IMG/VR virus record: IMGVR_UViG_638341086_000004
Length of the DNA: 11,922 nucleotides
Direction: 5' to 3' (one strand)
From: a virus
Taxonomy: Duplodnaviria; Heunggongvirae; Uroviricota; Caudoviricetes
How positions within the stretch are numbered: the first letter of the stretch is position 1; every line of letters begins with the position of its first letter. Under the pieces are notes generated by a model. The model searched no databases, was not told the origin of the DNA, and worked only from the letters and a program-made list of their open reading frames with translations. Shown in pieces: positions 1,664-11,464 of this stretch. A program made the translations under genes and the position numbers.

Positions 1664-2083
1664 CTATGATGCGTTTTGTGCTTTCTTTTTACGGATTTCT
1701 TCGTAGATCATATTGTAATACTGTTTTTTCTCTTCAAGAGTTTTTAATAAGTTATCCGCTTCACTTTCTGGCAGTTCGTCTAAGAGATCTAAAAAAATAC
1801 GTTGTCGTGGCGTTAGAACCCTTGTTTCATAACTGGAGGCTGTGTTCGTTGATGATGAAACGATACCATCCATCCATCCCCGGGGTAACCCAAAGGACTC
1901 TTCGATAATCTCCACCATATCATCAGCGATCCGTTTTTTTCCCTTTTTCCCCTCTGGGTACAACATTCTTGATACATAAGAAGGCTCGCGCCCGATCTTT
2001 CTGGCCACGTTAACCGCTTTACCATCGCATTTCTCATCACGAATTTTGATGAGTTGCTGTCGTCTAAATTCATATTTATCCAT
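1664..2083 (-). CDS. Prophage immunity repressor, short HTH-only type (RacR/DicA-like size class; no S24 peptidase domain)
   Basis: 139-aa ORF divergent from the cro-like gene. An HTH-like segment (GKAVNVARKIGREPSYVSRMLYPEG) and the length are incompatible with a LexA-type cleavage domain. No SD upstream of the ATG, suggesting a leaderless mRNA. Confidence 0.75.
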   Translation of the reverse strand: MDKYEFRRQQLIKIRDEKCDGKAVNVARKIGREPSYVSRMLYPEGKKGKKRIADDMVEIIEESFGLPRGWMDGIVSSSTNTASSYETRVLTPRQRIFLDLLDELPESEADNLLKTLEEKKQYYNMIYEEIRKKKAQNAS

Positions 2084-2119: not shown

Positions 2120-2158
2120 ACCTGTGGGTATTGACTTTTGTTTACCTGTGGGTATTCT
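2120..2158. promoter_or_regulatory. Right operator/promoter region (OR/pR-like): two copies of ACCTGTGGGTAT (2120-2131 and 2144-2155) overlapping a candidate rightward promoter (-35 TTGACT at 2131-2136, -10 TATTCT at 2153-2158)
   Basis: Two identical 12-mers 24 bp apart carrying the TACCCA half-site (reverse complement), in the divergent intergenic region. A -35/-10 pair with a 16-bp spacer is positioned to drive the cro-like gene (RBS AAGGAG at 2173-2178, ATG at 2184). Confidence 0.5.
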
Positions 2159-2945: not shown

Positions 2946-4016
2946 ATGGCTAACGCCTGGCTCAGATTATGGCATGACATGCCAAATGACCCTAAGTGGC
3001 GAACAATTGCCAGGGTGTCAGGGCAGCCAATTGCAACAGTGATGGCAGTGTATATCCACCTCCTGGTGAGCGCGTCACGAAATGTCACGCGAGGTCACAT
3101 TGATGTCACGACAGAAGATTTGGCAAGTGCGCTCGACGTGACAGAAGAGGTAATTGATTCAATTTTGCAGACGATGCAGGGGCGGGTACTTGATGGTGAT
3201 TTAATCACTGGATGGGAAAAACGCCAGGTGCTGAAAGAGGACAACGGCAATATTTCGCAAACCGCAAAATCTCCTGCAGAGCGCAAGAGGGCGCAGCGAG
3301 AGAGGGAAAGAAAGCGGGAACAAAATGGCGATTGTCACGGCGCGTCACGAAATGTCACGCACATGTCACGACGAGTCACGACAGATAAAGATACAGATAA
3401 AGATACAGATAAAGATACAGATAAAGATACAGATCAAGAAGATCAAAACACTATGGTCCATGGCGTAAAAAACGCCACGAACCAGGCAGGGGATGTTCAG
3501 ACCGTCAATCCTGGTCAGCCAGCAGGCACGACACCGGAAGCCGATTCGGGCGCTGTGCAGCAGGTGATGACCGCAAGGCCGGAGCAATCACACCAACTGC
3601 AGCAGCCCGAAGCCGATTCCGCCATTCAGCGGGAAGCCGATCGGGTAGTCCCGGAAAACACCGGTCAGTCTGTGGGACGAGTGGATTATCCGGATGTGTT
3701 CGAACAGGTCTGGCGGGAGTACCCGTTGCGTGCTGGGGCAAACCCGAAGAAATCCGCTTTCAGTGCCTGGAAGGCCAGATTACGCGAGGGGGTGCCACCA
3801 GAGGCCATGCTGGATGGTGTGAGGCGTTACGCGAGATACCTGGCGGCGACCGGGAAAGCGGGAACGGAATTTGTTCAGCGAGCGACGACGTTTTTTGGGC
3901 CGGACCGGAATTTTGAAAACCCCTGGTTGCTCCCGGTAAGCGGCACGAACAACCAGCGTTGCGTGAATCACATTTCTGAACCGGACACTGAAATACCGCC
4001 GGGATTCAGGGGGTGA
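2946..4016 (+). CDS. Phage replication initiator (O-like role) with a DnaT-like C-terminal domain
   Basis: ORF starting at the ATG at 2946 (GAGG RBS 5 nt upstream; the ORF track starts at GTG 2940). The C-terminus ...VNHISEPDTEIPPGFRG resembles the C-terminus of E. coli primosomal protein DnaT as I recall it. The middle of the gene carries iteron-like repeats and an AT-rich tandem repeat. It is immediately followed by a DnaC-like gene. Confidence 0.8.
   Translation: MANAWLRLWHDMPNDPKWRTIARVSGQPIATVMAVYIHLLVSASRNVTRGHIDVTTEDLASALDVTEEVIDSILQTMQGRVLDGDLITGWEKRQVLKEDNGNISQTAKSPAERKRAQRERERKREQNGDCHGASRNVTHMSRRVTTDKDTDKDTDKDTDKDTDQEDQNTMVHGVKNATNQAGDVQTVNPGQPAGTTPEADSGAVQQVMTARPEQSHQLQQPEADSAIQREADRVVPENTGQSVGRVDYPDVFEQVWREYPLRAGANPKKSAFSAWKARLREGVPPEAMLDGVRRYARYLAATGKAGTEFVQRATTFFGPDRNFENPWLLPVSGTNNQRCVNHISEPDTEIPPGFRG
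3074..3110. repeat. Iteron-like cluster 1: four GTCAC(G/A) motifs phased ~10-11 bp apart
   Basis: GTCACG at 3074, 3084 and 3105, GTCACA at 3094. The 20-mer CGCGTCACGAAATGTCACGC (3071-3090) recurs exactly at 3341-3360. Confidence 0.55.
3334..3380. repeat. Iteron-like cluster 2: five GTCACG motifs phased at helical-turn spacing, directly upstream of an AT-rich tandem repeat (candidate phage origin)
   Basis: GTCACG at 3334, 3344, 3354, 3365 and 3375. Contains the second copy of the 20-mer CGCGTCACGAAATGTCACGC. Lies inside the initiator gene, as lambda-type origins lie inside O. Confidence 0.6.
3384..3431. repeat. Perfect 12-bp tandem repeat (GATAAAGATACA x4, then a degenerate partial unit), AT-rich; encodes a (DKDT)n linker in the initiator
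   Basis: Read directly from the sequence; units at 3384, 3396, 3408 and 3420. Immediately 3' of iteron cluster 2. Confidence 0.85.
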
Positions 4017-4022
4017 CGTGTC

Positions 4023-4769
4023 ATGAAAAACATTGCGGCAGTTGGGGTTCTTGAACGTATTCGCAGACTTGCACCACAGGGGGCGGTTCCACCGTACCGG
4101 ACGGTGGAGGAGTGGCGGGAATGGCAACTTGCTGAAGGACGAAAACGCAGCGAGGAGATTAACCGCCAGAATCGCCAGTTGCGGGTGGAAAAAATCCTGA
4201 ATCGTTCGGGCATCCAGCCTCTGCACAGCAAATGCTCGTTTGCGAATTATCAGGTGCAGAATGACGGGCAAAAATACGCGCTGAGCCAGGCCAAATCCAT
4301 AGCTGACGAACTGATGACCGGGTGCACGAATTTTGTGTTCAGCGGTAAAACCGGCACCGGGAAAAATCACCTTGCAGCGGCGATGGGTAACCGGCTGATG
4401 GCGAAGGGGCGCAGCGTGATTATCGTCACCGTGTCTGATGTCATGAGCGTGTTGCATGACAGCTACGACAACGGCAAATCCGGGGAAAAATTTTTACAGG
4501 AGCTTTGCGGGGTTGATTTGCTGGTCCTGGATGAAATAGGCGTTCAGCGGGAGACGAAAAACGAGCAGGTGGTATTACACCAGATAATTGATCGCCGGAC
4601 AGCATCACTGTGCAGTGTCGGGATGTTAACAAACCTGAATCATGCCGCAATGAGCACGCTTCTTGGTGAGAGGATTATGGACCGGATGACCATGAGCGGT
4701 GGTCGATGGGTGACGTTTAACTGGGATAGCTGGCGTCCAAATGTCAGCAATATGAGGGTTGTGAAGTAA
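4023..4769 (+). CDS. DnaC-like replicative helicase loader (AAA+ ATPase), phage-encoded
   Basis: 248-aa ORF with Walker A (GKTGTGKNHLAAA) and Walker B (LLVLDEIG) motifs. Collinear similarity to E. coli DnaC over its length (recalled sequence: ...NRSGIQPLH..CSF.NY..., MLTN.N...LLGERIMDRM). GGGGTGA RBS upstream. Confidence 0.9.
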   Translation: MKNIAAVGVLERIRRLAPQGAVPPYRTVEEWREWQLAEGRKRSEEINRQNRQLRVEKILNRSGIQPLHSKCSFANYQVQNDGQKYALSQAKSIADELMTGCTNFVFSGKTGTGKNHLAAAMGNRLMAKGRSVIIVTVSDVMSVLHDSYDNGKSGEKFLQELCGVDLLVLDEIGVQRETKNEQVVLHQIIDRRTASLCSVGMLTNLNHAAMSTLLGERIMDRMTMSGGRWVTFNWDSWRPNVSNMRVVK

Positions 4770-4790: not shown

Positions 4791-5562
4791 ATGGAAACCG
4801 TATCTGACGCACTGAAAGCACTGAAAAAAGCCTCTTCACATGTGGTGGCAGCTCGCCTTGGAATCAGTCGTGAAGAGGCTGTCAACGAGCTGTGGGAACT
4901 CAAAAGAAATGGCGTCGTTGATAAAACTGGTCACACCTGGTTTCTGGCTGGCGAAGGTGAATCCCTGGTAACCGAAGAGCTGCCAGTAAAATCTGAAGCA
5001 CAGGATATGCTGACCGGGGAGGTCGAACAAAAAGTTACCGCAGACATGATGATTGAGTTTATCGGTCAGGGATGGGGCTAAAACGTGTGAGGAACTGGCG
5101 GGTAAGTTCGGCGTCAGTACTCGCAAGGTTGCTTCCACGCTGGCGGTGGTAACCGCAACGGGGCGGCTGGCACGCGTTAATCAGAGCGGTAAATTTTGTT
5201 ACTGCATGCCGGGCGATAATTTACCAGCAGAGTCGAAAGCCGCGCTGGTAACGGAAAATGATGGTAAGGCCTTTCCTCAGCCAGCAGGTGCTGCGTTACC
5301 AGTCCGGGAAGCCGCAACACAGGAAGAAATTAAAACAGAAACTGTGGCGGACATTGTGCAGCCGTTGCTATCGTTTACCGAAACGCAAGCAGATGAGCTG
5401 ATTTTTCCGTCCCTGCGCAGGGCAAACCTGGCGCTGCGCAGGGCGAAAAGTGATGTTCAGAAGTGGGAGCGAATCTGCGCCGCGCTGCGGGAGCTGAACA
5501 AGCACCGGGATATTGTTCGACAGATTACTGATTCTTCCCGCCGTGTTGTATCGGAAAAGTGA
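4791..5562 (+). pseudogene. Winged-helix-like protein of unknown function (DUF1627-like), apparently split by a +1 frameshift in a G-run at ~5069-5071; the two ORF-track pieces are 4791-5081 and 5053-5562
   Basis: The first ORF (RBS GGAGG, ATG 4791) stops at 5079-5081. The second ORF continues in the +1 frame and has no ATG/RBS of its own (the ORF-track start is TTG). Removing one G from the GGG at 5069-5071 fuses them into one ~257-aa protein (...[21 protein letters not shown]...). Confidence 0.5.
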
Positions 5563-5577
5563 TTGCCGAAGGCGCTT

Positions 5578-6003
5578 ATGGCAAAAGTATTTACACAAGA
5601 AGAGCGAGAAAAAATTAAAGGGCAGGTTGTTGAGCTAGTACGCCGGAGTGGGCGCGAGACGTTACGGCAACTGGAAGCCAAGACAGGTGCGACAAGATAT
5701 CTGATGAGCGTTCTTGCCAGAGAGCTGGTTGCCAGTGGTGATGTATATCACTCTGGCTATGGGTTGTTCCCGTCAGAACAGGCGCGTAAGGACTGGCAAA
5801 ACGCCCGCAAAAAACTCTCGAGGGCAAAGGTGAAGAAACCTGTTGTGGTTGATCCGGGCCTTATCTGGACATTACCCGACGGAGAAATACACCGCTACGA
5901 CAGGCGTATGAACATAATCTGTCGCGAGTGCCGGAAGAGCGAAGCTATGCAGCGTGTACTGGCATTTTATCAAGGAAATGTTAGATATTTTAGACGTTAC
6001 TAG
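5578..6003 (+). CDS. Hypothetical prophage protein (141 aa from the ATG at 5578), possible winged-helix N-terminus
   Basis: ORF with a GAAGG RBS ~7 nt upstream of the ATG at 5578 (the ORF-track start at 5563 is TTG). No recognisable catalytic motifs. Confidence 0.6.
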   Translation: MAKVFTQEEREKIKGQVVELVRRSGRETLRQLEAKTGATRYLMSVLARELVASGDVYHSGYGLFPSEQARKDWQNARKKLSRAKVKKPVVVDPGLIWTLPDGEIHRYDRRMNIICRECRKSEAMQRVLAFYQGNVRYFRRY

Positions 6004-6843: not shown

Positions 6844-7021
6844 TTTTATGGATCACCTTTCTGATTGATTTCATATTGGCGAGGTGACGTGAGTTAAGTA
6901 GAATTGCTGCGGGTGCCTGAGGCTGTCTGCCTCAGGCATGAACACCAAAAGGCAGATAGAGAAAGCCCCAGTTAACATTACGCGTCCTGTAAGACGCTCA
7001 ACATTAATCTGAGGCATATGG

Positions 7022-8146
7022 ATGCGGATGAAAGAATTAAATAAATTCAGAGTGATAGACCTCTTTTGTGGGGCAGGTGGATTATCTTATGGTTTTCTTC
7101 ATGGAGAGATGTCTGACTACTTTGAAAGTATCCTTGCTATTGATAATAATGCTGCAGCTATAAATACCTACAATGCCAATTTTGGTTTGCATGGAGTTCA
7201 GGCAAATATTGAGGAGTGGGCATCCAGCAATACTGTTCCTGAGGCTGATGTGGTCATAGGTGGCCCCCCGTGTCAGGGATTCAGTTTATTGAATAAGAAT
7301 CGTTATGGTGATCACCGAAGAGCATTGTGGGAGCCTTATATGGATGTCATTGAGCGTTCAAGGGCTTGTATGTTCGTCATGGAAAATGTCCCCGGATTGC
7401 TGATAAGCGATGAGTTTGCGGACATTACGTTTAGAGCGAAATCCATGGGCTTTATTCTGCTTAATCCAATGGTGTTGAATACTGCTGACTATGGAGTACC
7501 TCAGACAAGAAAACGAACGATAGCAATCGGTATCAAACGAGAACTCTTCGATGTGCATAGTATTCCGGCGTTCCCGCCAGCACCAACGCATCGTTCCCCT
7601 GATAAGGATGTCGCTTTGCCTGAATGGGTCTGTACGCGTGATGCAATTGGTGACTTACCTGCTCCTGTTGGAACTGATATTCGTAATGAACTTCCTCCGC
7701 TGAACTTACATTTTGGGCGTAATCCCACACCTGTTTCTCTGGAGCGATATAAAGCGGTTCCACCAGGAGGTAACCGTTTCGATTTACAGAAAAAAAGACC
7801 TGATATAACCCCGGCGTGCTGGCTAAAAAAGAAATCTGGAGGGACCGATTTGTTTGGACGTCTGTGGTGGGACAAACCTTCAGTAACGATTCGTACTGAG
7901 TTTTTCAAACCGGAGAAAGGGCGATATTTACATCCGGAAGAGGATCGGCCAATAACTCATCGTGAGGCAGCGAGATTAATGTCTTTTCCTGATAATTTCA
8001 TTTTTACCGGTTCAAAAACTGAGATTGCAAAGCAGATCGGGAATGCTGTTCCACCGCTATTTGCGGCAAAAATCGCACAATATGTGTATGGAGTTTTGCA
8101 GGGACGGTATAAGAATAACATCAGTAAGAATAGTCAAGCAGCCTGA
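7022..8146 (+). CDS. DNA (cytosine-5)-methyltransferase (Type II R-M modification subunit)
   Basis: 374-aa ORF with canonical C5-MTase motifs in order: I (DLFCGAGG), IV (GGPPCQGFS), VI (ENVPGL), VIII (QTRKR), IX (RPITHREAARLMSFPDNFIF), X (GNAVPP). RBS GAGG 7 nt upstream. Confidence 0.92.
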   Translation: MRMKELNKFRVIDLFCGAGGLSYGFLHGEMSDYFESILAIDNNAAAINTYNANFGLHGVQANIEEWASSNTVPEADVVIGGPPCQGFSLLNKNRYGDHRRALWEPYMDVIERSRACMFVMENVPGLLISDEFADITFRAKSMGFILLNPMVLNTADYGVPQTRKRTIAIGIKRELFDVHSIPAFPPAPTHRSPDKDVALPEWVCTRDAIGDLPAPVGTDIRNELPPLNLHFGRNPTPVSLERYKAVPPGGNRFDLQKKRPDITPACWLKKKSGGTDLFGRLWWDKPSVTIRTEFFKPEKGRYLHPEEDRPITHREAARLMSFPDNFIFTGSKTEIAKQIGNAVPPLFAAKIAQYVYGVLQGRYKNNISKNSQAA

Positions 8147-10544: not shown

Positions 10545-10904
10545 ATGCTCATAGAGTTTGTTTTGCCTTACCCGCCGACGGTGAACACCTACTGGCGACG
10601 TCGTGGCAGCACATATTTTGTATCAAAAGCCGGTGAGCGTTATCGCCGGGCTGTGGCGCTTATTGTTCGCCAGCAGCGGCTGAAATTAAGCCTGTCCGGA
10701 AGGCTGGCGATAAAGGTGATTGCAGAGCCACCGGATAAGCGTCGTCGCGACCTGGACAACATTCTGAAAGCACCGCTGGATGCGCTGACGCATGCGGGAG
10801 TGCTCATTGATGACGAGCAGTTTGATGAAATCAATATTGTACGTGGTCAGCCAGTATCTGGTGGACGGCTGGGTGTGAAGATTTACAAAATTGAGAGTGA
10901 GTGA
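10545..10904 (+). CDS. rusA: Crossover junction endodeoxyribonuclease RusA (Holliday junction resolvase)
   Basis: 119-aa ORF with an AAGAGGTGA RBS. Collinear match to recalled E. coli RusA (YPPTVNTYWRRRG..., DKRRRDLDNILKAPLDALT..., GVLIDDEQ...). Confidence 0.9.
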   Translation: MLIEFVLPYPPTVNTYWRRRGSTYFVSKAGERYRRAVALIVRQQRLKLSLSGRLAIKVIAEPPDKRRRDLDNILKAPLDALTHAGVLIDDEQFDEINIVRGQPVSGGRLGVKIYKIESE

Positions 10905-10912
10905 GCGTAAAT

Positions 10913-11464
10913 ATGATATATCCGGAAATTACAGGCAAAAGCGGCGAACATTTACGCCTGAACACGCTGGAAGCAGTCTGGATCCAGGGGAAATTACGGA
11001 TGTGGGGGCGGTGGTCGTATATCGGTGGGGGTAAATCCGGAAATATGTTTAACCGGTTACTGGTTTCGAAAAAGCTGACGAAAACAGCAGTTAATGAGGT
11101 TTTACGCAGAATGAAGAAATCCGGGCTGGAAAAACCGGAACTTGAGGCATTTTTTCGGGATATGACAAGAGGAAAGCAGAAGAGCTGGTTGTCACATTGT
11201 ACAGACACAGAGGCGTTGATTATTGATCGCGTTATCAGTGAGGTGCTTGGGGAATATCCCGGGCTAATCAATGTTCTCCGGCAAAGGTACGAAGGACGGG
11301 GAATGAGCAAACTGAAAATGGCCGAAAGGTTAAATGCAGATCATCCTGATTGGTCGTTGGTTACGTGCAGACGCCGAATTGATCAATGGTTGGGGGTATC
11401 TGAATTTATGTTATATGCCCCCATGCGCATGGCTTTTGTTACAGAGAAAAATGTTGCAAACTGA
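10913..11464 (+). CDS. Hypothetical protein; candidate late-gene antiterminator (Q-like) by position only
   Basis: ORF directly after rusA (ATG at 10913; the ORF track offers GTG at 10901, which overlaps the rusA stop). It is followed by an intergenic region with promoter-like and terminator-like elements, as for Q/pR'/tR' in lambdoid phages. No Q motif recognised by eye. Confidence 0.5.
   Translation: MIYPEITGKSGEHLRLNTLEAVWIQGKLRMWGRWSYIGGGKSGNMFNRLLVSKKLTKTAVNEVLRRMKKSGLEKPELEAFFRDMTRGKQKSWLSHCTDTEALIIDRVISEVLGEYPGLINVLRQRYEGRGMSKLKMAERLNADHPDWSLVTCRRRIDQWLGVSEFMLYAPMRMAFVTEKNVAN

Follow-up and report, generated by a model that had tools for sequence, protein, structure and literature searches.

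Positions 3070-3445 of an 11,922-nt stretch of viral DNA (IMG/VR record IMGVR_UViG_638341086_000004; the whole stretch is referred to here as the window) are very likely the replication origin of a Rac-type lambdoid prophage, located inside the gene of its own initiator. This assignment is based on the comparative analysis of two arrays of the hexamer GTCACG (the iterons), a single inverted copy of the same hexamer and an AT-rich tandem array. All of these elements lie inside one open reading frame (ORF) at 2946-4016 on the plus strand, which codes for a protein of PHROG 3729, a family of replication initiation proteins. An earlier note on this DNA, made from the nucleotide letters alone, had also placed the arrays in an initiator ORF. 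The window itself looks like the early-right region of an Escherichia coli prophage of the lambdoid, Rac type.

Array 1 (3074-3110, plus strand) consists of GTCACG, GTCACG, GTCACA and GTCACG at 3074, 3084, 3094 and 3105, and array 2 (3334-3380, plus strand) consists of five copies of GTCACG at 3334, 3344, 3354, 3365 and 3375. The GTCAC cores are spaced by 10, 10 and 11 bp in array 1 and by 10, 10, 11 and 10 bp in array 2, so that the two clusters of four and five copies at intervals of about 10 bp described in the earlier note were found as stated. That note had also claimed that the arrays share a 20-mer; the sharing is real, and only the length has to be corrected, as the common word is an exact 21-mer, GCGCGTCACGAAATGTCACGC, found at 3070 and 3340. 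A tenth copy that the note did not include, an inverted single GTCACG at 3137-3142 (minus strand), lies 27 bp downstream of array 1 over codons D64-V65-T66. GTCACG occurs 12 times in the whole window, nine of them within 3074-3380 (a 310-nt stretch), and the mean after shuffling was 4.9 per window. The maximum number of same-strand GTCAC motifs per 50 nt was 5, compared with 1-2, and 3 once, in 300 first-order Markov simulations of the window, and the two most clustered 5-mers of the real window were AGATA and GTCAC. Array 1 codes for amino acids 43-55 (ASRNVTRGHIDVT), which in the AlphaFold2 model described below correspond to the end of the third helix and the loop 46-55 that precedes the helix-turn-helix, the exact place of the insertions found in longer alleles. 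Array 2 is read in all three frames (CHGASRNVTHMSRRVT) and starts after a basic helix, where a disordered linker begins. Together with the AT-rich tract it codes for amino acids 130-166, after the folded N-terminal domain and the basic helix and before the disordered linker and C-terminal domain.

The AT-rich tandem array, the candidate DNA-unwinding element, is located at 3381-3445 on the plus strand and consists of 4.9 copies of ACAGATAAAGAT followed by GATCAAGAAGATC, which includes two GATC sites (3432 and 3441). Tandem Repeats Finder reported a period of 12, 4.9 copies and 97% matches at 3381-3439, an interval that includes four perfect GATAAAGATACA units adjoining array 2. The array has a GC content of 0.23-0.28 versus approximately 0.5 in its flanks, and no other 50-nt duplex in the whole window is as unstable (nearest-neighbour dG -54.1; window mean -70.3, standard deviation 4.9). 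Its translation is TDKDTDKDTDKDTDKDTDQED, i.e., (DKDT)n. Both the four perfect AT-rich repeats next to the second cluster and the (DKDT)n linker had been pointed out in the earlier note and were confirmed. AT-rich tracts of this kind often end in words that contain GATC or AGATCT; this was observed here (GATCAAGAAGATC, 3432-3444), in Rac (AAAGATCTAAAAACAGATCC) and in many other loci. The complementary strand of these words resembles the 13-mers of oriC, GATCTnTTnTTTT. An imperfect palindrome, TGGTCCATGGCGTAAAAAACGCCACGAACCA, is located just to the right of the tract, at 3454-3484. Its predicted DNA hairpin has a free energy of -8.7 kcal/mol (z -2.75), and 4 of 200 shuffled sequences folded equally well. 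In lambda, too, the AT-rich region of the origin has a palindrome on its right. However, the significance of the palindrome at 3454-3484 is doubtful because its inner stem is weakened in the O157 allele.

About 990 database relatives of the N-terminal domain of the initiator were found, and 47 loci were fetched from one-genome-per-species contigs to compare the arrays at the DNA level. In about 20 of the 47 loci, GTCAC is present at gene nt 129, 139, 149 and 160; an inverted copy follows at 193, and three to five further copies are found near nt 380-430. The equivalents of array 2 thus have three to five copies, though the peptide that they encode differs, and the inverted copy at nt 193 is kept in most relatives of the GTCAC class. 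The loci that conserve these positions range in GC content from 0.34 to 0.69, share 67-99% amino acid identity and come from Shigella, Rahnella, Serratia, Pseudomonas, Bordetella, Chromobacterium, Acidovorax and others. Among 20 sequences, the codons that coincide with the iterons were S44 TCA (19/20), V47 GTC (20/20), T48 ACG (20/20), G50 GGT (20/20), H51 CAC (19/19), V54 GTC (20/20) and, in the inverted copy, V65 GTG (17/17). Outside the cores, Ser61 uses AGT, AGC and TCA, and other valines use three or four codons. When both sets of codons were drawn from this one alignment, the normalised synonymous entropy was 0.14 for the 10 codons with their third base in a core and 0.77 for the 63 others (Mann-Whitney p 9e-6, a value that is indicative only because the sequences are related and are not independent samples).

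The period of 10-11 bp is not a multiple of three and, therefore, the hexamer is read as V-T, C-H and S-R, i.e., in all three frames. At equivalent sites, the encoded peptides differ among homologues (CHGASRNVTHMSRRVT, CHDESRICHDMSRRVT and SVTKCHDESQEVT). A repeat maintained at the level of the peptide was considered and rejected because of this period and of the frozen synonymous sites. As judged from these codon patterns, the repeats are under selection as DNA and not as protein. The AT-rich tract is likewise an element at the DNA level. In most loci the 40 nt of lowest GC content in the gene are AGATAA or AGATAC units placed directly after the last iteron. A tract of this type adjoins array 2 in nearly all relatives, even in a genome of 69% GC, where it reads CTAGATAAAGATACAGATAAAGATAAA. 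Most subfamilies translate AGATA[AC] as D-K or D-T; others use a second frame, which gives Q-I-R-E. The 12-mer varies in copy number among E. coli alleles, with 2 and 4 copies verified and 3 inferred from a 12-nt length step. The statement of the earlier note that coding and cis-acting roles overlap stands, as all computational tests that could separate a cis element from a coding accident favoured the former. The longest E. coli alleles (1225 nt) were suspected of having extra 12-mers, but this was rejected, as they have four copies plus an unrelated 24-nt insertion further downstream.

Length variation in the arrays comes in whole iterons. Several alleles have a 21-nt insertion (two iterons, seven codons) in array 1, and others have larger insertions of extra sites. 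In many E. coli alleles (L002-L005 and L009, gene nt 149-190), the loop of the DNA-binding domain is longer by TCHGVSL owing to the 21-nt insertion. An allele lacking one 10-nt unit of array 2 (L004, gene nt about 440) is annotated as frameshifted. The number of iterons alters by slippage, and it seems that a gene can stay in frame only when the steps are of two iterons.

The identity of the hexamer co-varies with the subfamily of the initiator N-terminal domain. Distant subfamilies of the same domain have no GTCAC and carry another hexamer at both array places. In nine loci this is CGAACG(C), where array 1 codes for ASNATERGRTQ and array 2 for TQPNATER, and in four loci it is GTAACG; one further locus has GTCACG at a spacing of 5 bp. 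In every locus, the 5-mer that is most frequent in array 1 is found again in array 2 and is almost absent from the rest of the gene. The differences among the three classes (GTCACG, GTAACG and CGAACG) are concentrated in the iteron-coded loop, in the DVTE segment (amino acids 64-67), for which the inverted copy codes, and in the basic helix (amino acids 100-125); the rest of the N-terminal domain is almost unchanged. As these are the main places where the classes differ, it is conceivable, although we regard it as improbable, that the iteron-coded loop (amino acids 44-55, before the helix-turn-helix) helps to read the very sequence that encodes it. If this were true, one change, or gene conversion between the arrays, would alter site and reader together, providing a self-referential route to new origin specificities.

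The 356-amino-acid product of the 2946-4016 gene matched PHROG 3729, "replication initiation protein", from end to end (E 1.8e-243), and its RefSeq relatives are named "phage replisome organizer" by PGAP. Weaker matches were found to PHROGs of the "replisome organizer" type (phrog_4880, 1.3e-8; phrog_5968, 4.6e-7). On the basis of PHROG 3729, the PGAP name and the position upstream of a gene for a DnaC-like loader, we identify the gene as that of a phage replication initiator. A Pfam scan of the protein yielded only a sub-threshold TFIIF_alpha match and no match to Phage_rep_O, the lambda O family. The protein can be divided into a winged-helix-like domain (amino acids 1-95), a basic helix (110-130), a disordered linker (136-244), a helical C-terminal domain (249-316) and an IPPGFRG tail. 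AlphaFold2, supplied with 50 homologues, gave a model that was confident for amino acids 11-95 and has three helices, the loop 46-55, a helix-turn-helix (56-63 and 67-77) and a beta wing. A Foldseek search of the Protein Data Bank (PDB) with this model returned winged-helix regulators only, all with E > 0.7. Since these matches are non-significant, the fold is termed only winged-helix-like. The C-terminal tail ...EPDTEIPPGFRG (window 3945-4016, amino acids 333-356) is similar to the very C-terminal end of DnaT, a primosomal protein of the host. The last 24 amino acids weakly match the DnaT C-terminus (NCBIfam NF002770, E 0.0016), and a profile search of PDB sequences with the initiator found only DnaT C-terminal domains, also weakly. 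The same tail is common to Rac YdaU and to other initiators that precede a DnaC-like gene, and some alleles retain it without a downstream loader gene. The tail may be a handle that recruits the loader-helicase complex.

The origin reading leads to the following model, in which the binding, the cooperativity or looping, the unwinding and the helicase loading are inferred. Derepression would be followed by rightward early transcription, through which the initiator and the DnaC-like loader would be made. The winged-helix-like N-terminal domain of the initiator would then bind the GTCACG cores. The cores recur every 10-11 bp and, therefore, all sites are on the same side of the helix, which should allow a cooperative array. 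Such an array would form on the five sites at 3334-3380, and the four sites at 3074-3110 together with the inverted site at 3137 may join it by looping. The resulting strain would open the adjoining (GATAAAGATACA)4 tract, the easiest-melting DNA of the window. Finally, the C-terminal domain and tail of the initiator would recruit the DnaC-like loader with the host DnaB, and the host replisome would take over.

Other explanations of the repeats were weighed against this model. The GTCACG arrays, possibly array 1 alone, might be initiator-binding sites for autoregulation or copy control, acting as a transcription roadblock or by plasmid-style handcuffing. We consider such a role unlikely, even though approximately 230 bp of ordinary composition separate array 1 from the AT-rich tract, some relatives that lack array 1 retain the tract, and the path of early transcription crosses the arrays. 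Array 2 adjoins the least stable DNA of the gene in most loci, which is a hallmark of an origin and not of an operator; Rac, for which an active origin is reported in a supplementary figure legend (PMC3945230), has the same layout; and the arrays overlap no notable promoter-like site. A regulatory role is most plausible for array 1, which may differ in function from array 2 because it is distant from the tract, has no precedent in lambda and is not present in a few relatives; it might be looped into the initiation complex or act in copy control or autoregulation. The arrays might instead be bound by another protein, for example a host factor or a neighbouring regulator of the phage such as YdaS, YdaT or the repressor. 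YdaT-like and repressor genes are indeed located just upstream, but the hexamer shifts with the subfamily of the N-terminal domain that surrounds it and the window has zero DnaA boxes. A neighbouring regulator is also disfavoured as the binder because the repressor/cro sets in front of the N-terminal-plus-iteron module vary, as do the hosts; one example is a Pseudomonas phage whose repressor is of the S24 type. This explanation was judged very improbable. An explanation in which the repeats have no cis-acting role at all, being a low-complexity linker or loop or the product of replication slippage, with the AT-rich tract merely a patch of recombination homology, could account for a tract that codes for a disordered D/K/T linker, that varies in copy number and in which mosaic joints are found (matches to the N-terminal module end at window 3403). 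It does not agree with a period that places the motif in three frames, with core synonymous sites that are frozen across 34-69% GC, with an AGATAA tract that persists in two reading frames and at 69% GC, or with the fact that both arrays switch hexamer together. It is strongly disfavoured, and we give it hardly any credence.

The origin of replication remains our preferred interpretation, and a number of points weigh against it. Conservation at the DNA level proves a cis-acting function and does not prove that this function is replication initiation, and the codon statistics come from related sequences. The initiator was placed in no Pfam or NCBIfam family (Pfam E <= 0.01), and its modelled fold had no significant structural match. 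Array 1, at a distance of about 230 bp from the AT-rich tract, has no precedent in lambda, and it is absent in a few relatives that have only weak array-2-like sites (L031, L034 and L042). In addition, no description of these iterons was found in the literature searched.

Of 5426 complete E. coli genomes, 2204 have the N-terminal-plus-iteron module, which also occurs in phages of many other Proteobacteria; prophages of Shiga-toxin-producing strains are among its carriers. The C-terminus is exchanged together with the partner gene, as a module of its own. In E. coli, the N-terminal module is joined to a window-type C-terminus and a DnaC-like gene, to a "DnaT-like" C-terminus followed by a lambda-P-like gene, or to a window-type C-terminus with no loader gene after it; in Pseudomonas and Serratia a DnaB-like helicase gene follows the module. 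Megablast matches limited to the N-terminal module stop at query position 458; this corresponds to window 3403 and is within the 12-mer array. Mosaic joints (window 3403; loci L003-L005 and L009) fall inside the AGATAA tract, which is common to unrelated initiators such as Rac ydaU, and for these reasons the unwinding element may double as a homology patch for the exchange of replication modules. A search of plasmids found no small replicon built on the module; the only matches were large plasmids, a 50.9-kb circular Pseudomonas phage-like element and records that in fact represent chromosomes. Viral contigs were scanned independently with the pattern GTCACG-N4-GTCACG-N4-GTCAC. Of the 120 loci among the matches listed, 82 have the arrays inside homologues of the domain, mostly as a pair separated by 260-300 nt, and no extra array was found outside the gene in these 82 loci. 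Inspection of 10 of the 38 other loci among the matches listed showed that most are more distant initiator-like ORFs of high-GC phages. GTCACG arrays located after a basic helix and before a simple repeat were seen in ORFs of high-GC phages (L071, L161, L127, L064, L173, L096 and L147), and intergenic GTCACG arrays were seen in L062 (about 3960-4030) and L154. The superfamily that uses the hexamer may thus be wider than defined here.

The genes that surround the initiator follow the racR-ydaS-ydaT-ydaU-ydaV order of the K-12 Rac prophage. A repressor-like gene (1664-2083, minus strand) is divergent from the early operon, and YdaS/Cro-like (2184-2465) and YdaT/CII-like (2449-2874) genes, both on the plus strand, precede the initiator; all three were assigned by Pfam and PHROG matches. 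The initiator gene is followed, also on the plus strand, by a gene for a DnaC-like, YdaV-like helicase loader of 248 amino acids (4023-4769; NCBIfam NF009043, E 1.8e-152; DnaC equivalog, 2.2e-89; Pfam IstB_IS21), which is presumed to be the partner of the initiator C-terminal domain. Other plus-strand genes code for a Ren-like exclusion protein (5563-6003), a DNA methyltransferase (7022-8146), a RusA-like resolvase (10545-10904) and a Q-like antiterminator (10901-11464). Early rightward transcription would run through the candidate origin. Promoter-like hexamers were found at 2131-2158 (plus strand) and 2117-2090 (minus strand), at a frequency no higher than chance. An antisense RNA was considered on account of a promoter-like site at 3358-3331 and a hairpin at 3484-3454, both on the minus strand, and was rejected because their order is wrong for a transcription unit. 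DnaA boxes (TTWTNCACA), as would be expected of a DnaA-dependent origin, had zero matches anywhere in the window, and GATC was not enriched in it (31 sites vs 44 expected).

Some features of the window are separate from the replication genes. An Rfam match to the ALIL pseudoknot was found at 160-276 on the minus strand (119 bits; gathering score 50). Transposases of the IS3 family use this pseudoknot as their frameshift signal, and the left end of the window, adjoining the prophage immunity region, therefore appears to hold an IS3-type insertion sequence. A match to the sok antitoxin RNA at 6911-7091 on the plus strand (61 bits; gathering score 59) suggests a hok/sok-type toxin-antitoxin locus in the prophage, just upstream of the DNA methyltransferase gene. 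Two adjacent plus-strand ORFs, 4791-5081 and 5053-5562, match the first 93 and the last 160 of the 253 positions of phrog_630, respectively. Since they match opposite ends of one PHROG, a YdaW/DUF1627-like gene seems to be split at 4791-5562 by a frameshift or a sequencing error.

That an origin can lie within a lambdoid initiator gene is textbook knowledge. What is new is a defined candidate origin for a very common and unstudied initiator family, with a dual-array design, three co-varying specificities and a cis element overprinted on the coding sequence of a folded domain. No definition of the origin of this common module was found in the literature searched. A defined origin opens to experiment the replication of these prophages, the incompatibility of co-resident prophages and the link between replication and the dosage of toxin and late genes. 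The three co-varying hexamer classes constitute a natural series for mapping how the initiator reads its site. Furthermore, a DNA signal overprinted on coding sequence fixes rare codons and dictates residues of the loop and the linker, which matters for gene annotation and for codon-based tests of selection.

Several known systems share parts of this organisation. The "replisome organizer" G38P of the Bacillus phage SPP1 binds direct repeats in its own gene 38 (oriL), near an AT-rich region, and recruits a loader and a helicase. The relatives of the window initiator bear the same product name in RefSeq, and the initiator itself matches the "replisome organizer" PHROGs only weakly. The two systems differ in host lineage, repeat sequence and partner proteins; the initiator has no match to Pfam Phage_rep_org_N at E <= 0.01, and no second, distant copy of the origin was seen in the DNA examined in the viral-contig scan. 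Satellite phage P4 has direct-repeat cores of about 8 bp, approximately one helical turn apart, in two clusters (ori and crr) that are both bound by its initiator. The short direct cores of the window, also about one helical turn apart and in two separate clusters, are similar. However, the P4 clusters are kilobases apart and are not known to be embedded in this way in the coding sequence of a DNA-binding domain, and P4's alpha protein is a primase-helicase unrelated to the window initiator.

The earlier note had compared the region to the lambda origin. In lambda, the origin lies within gene O and has initiator sites followed by an AT-rich unwinding region, and the O protein has an N-terminal DNA-binding part and a C-terminal part that binds P; the iterons are four 18-bp inverted repeats, each bound by a dimer (PMC6022878). 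The layout of the window agrees with this arrangement. Its candidate origin is inside the initiator gene at the junction between the DNA-binding and partner-binding parts, an AT-rich tract prone to unwinding adjoins, promoter-distally, a row of repeated sites specific to the initiator type (4+1+5), in-frame changes in the length of the origin are tolerated by the protein, and the C-terminal half is matched to a helicase-loading partner. The comparison holds for the iterons, the AT-rich tract and their position in the initiator gene, and does not extend to the protein or to the design of the iterons. The window initiator has no detectable sequence relationship to lambda O (no Pfam match), and the 18-bp inverted repeats of lambda are replaced by 6-bp direct cores every 10-11 bp with variable spacers. 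The window also has a second array and an inverted site about 230-260 bp upstream, in the region that codes for the DNA-binding domain, and its partner is a DnaC-like AAA+ loader instead of lambda P, although alleles with a lambda-P-like partner exist.

A further parallel is the ydaU-ydaV region of the Rac prophage of E. coli K-12, which has the same order of repressor, ydaS, ydaT, initiator and DnaC-like loader. The loader of the window is 80% identical to Rac YdaV, the IPPGFRG tail is shared, and both regions have short direct repeats that precede a AATAAAGATACAGATAAAGAT tract. Nonetheless, the N-terminal domain of YdaU (DUF1376) is unrelated to that of the window initiator, and BLASTP aligned only the linker and the C-terminal 19 amino acids of the two proteins. 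The Rac repeats, located in ydaU (L001 3260-3640) and followed by AATAAAGATACAGATAAAGAT, are (G/A)ATGTTCAA and not GTCACG. Rac is reported to hold an active origin, oriJ, in the legend of Fig. S3 of PMC3945230. No paper that maps oriJ to the ydaU repeats was found in the literature searched, and its placement there is putative. The layout also occurs in an O157:H7 prophage (L006 1460-1800), where the window-type C-terminal module is joined to an unrelated N-terminal domain with its own repeats: AAGGGGCTT is present three times in each of two arrays 256 bp apart, and (CAGGAA)n follows. As in Rac, the repeats of the O157:H7 prophage are followed by a simple purine-rich tract. As the unrelated N-terminal domains of these two prophages share the two-array layout, each with its own repeats, the design seems to be general for this class of prophage initiators.

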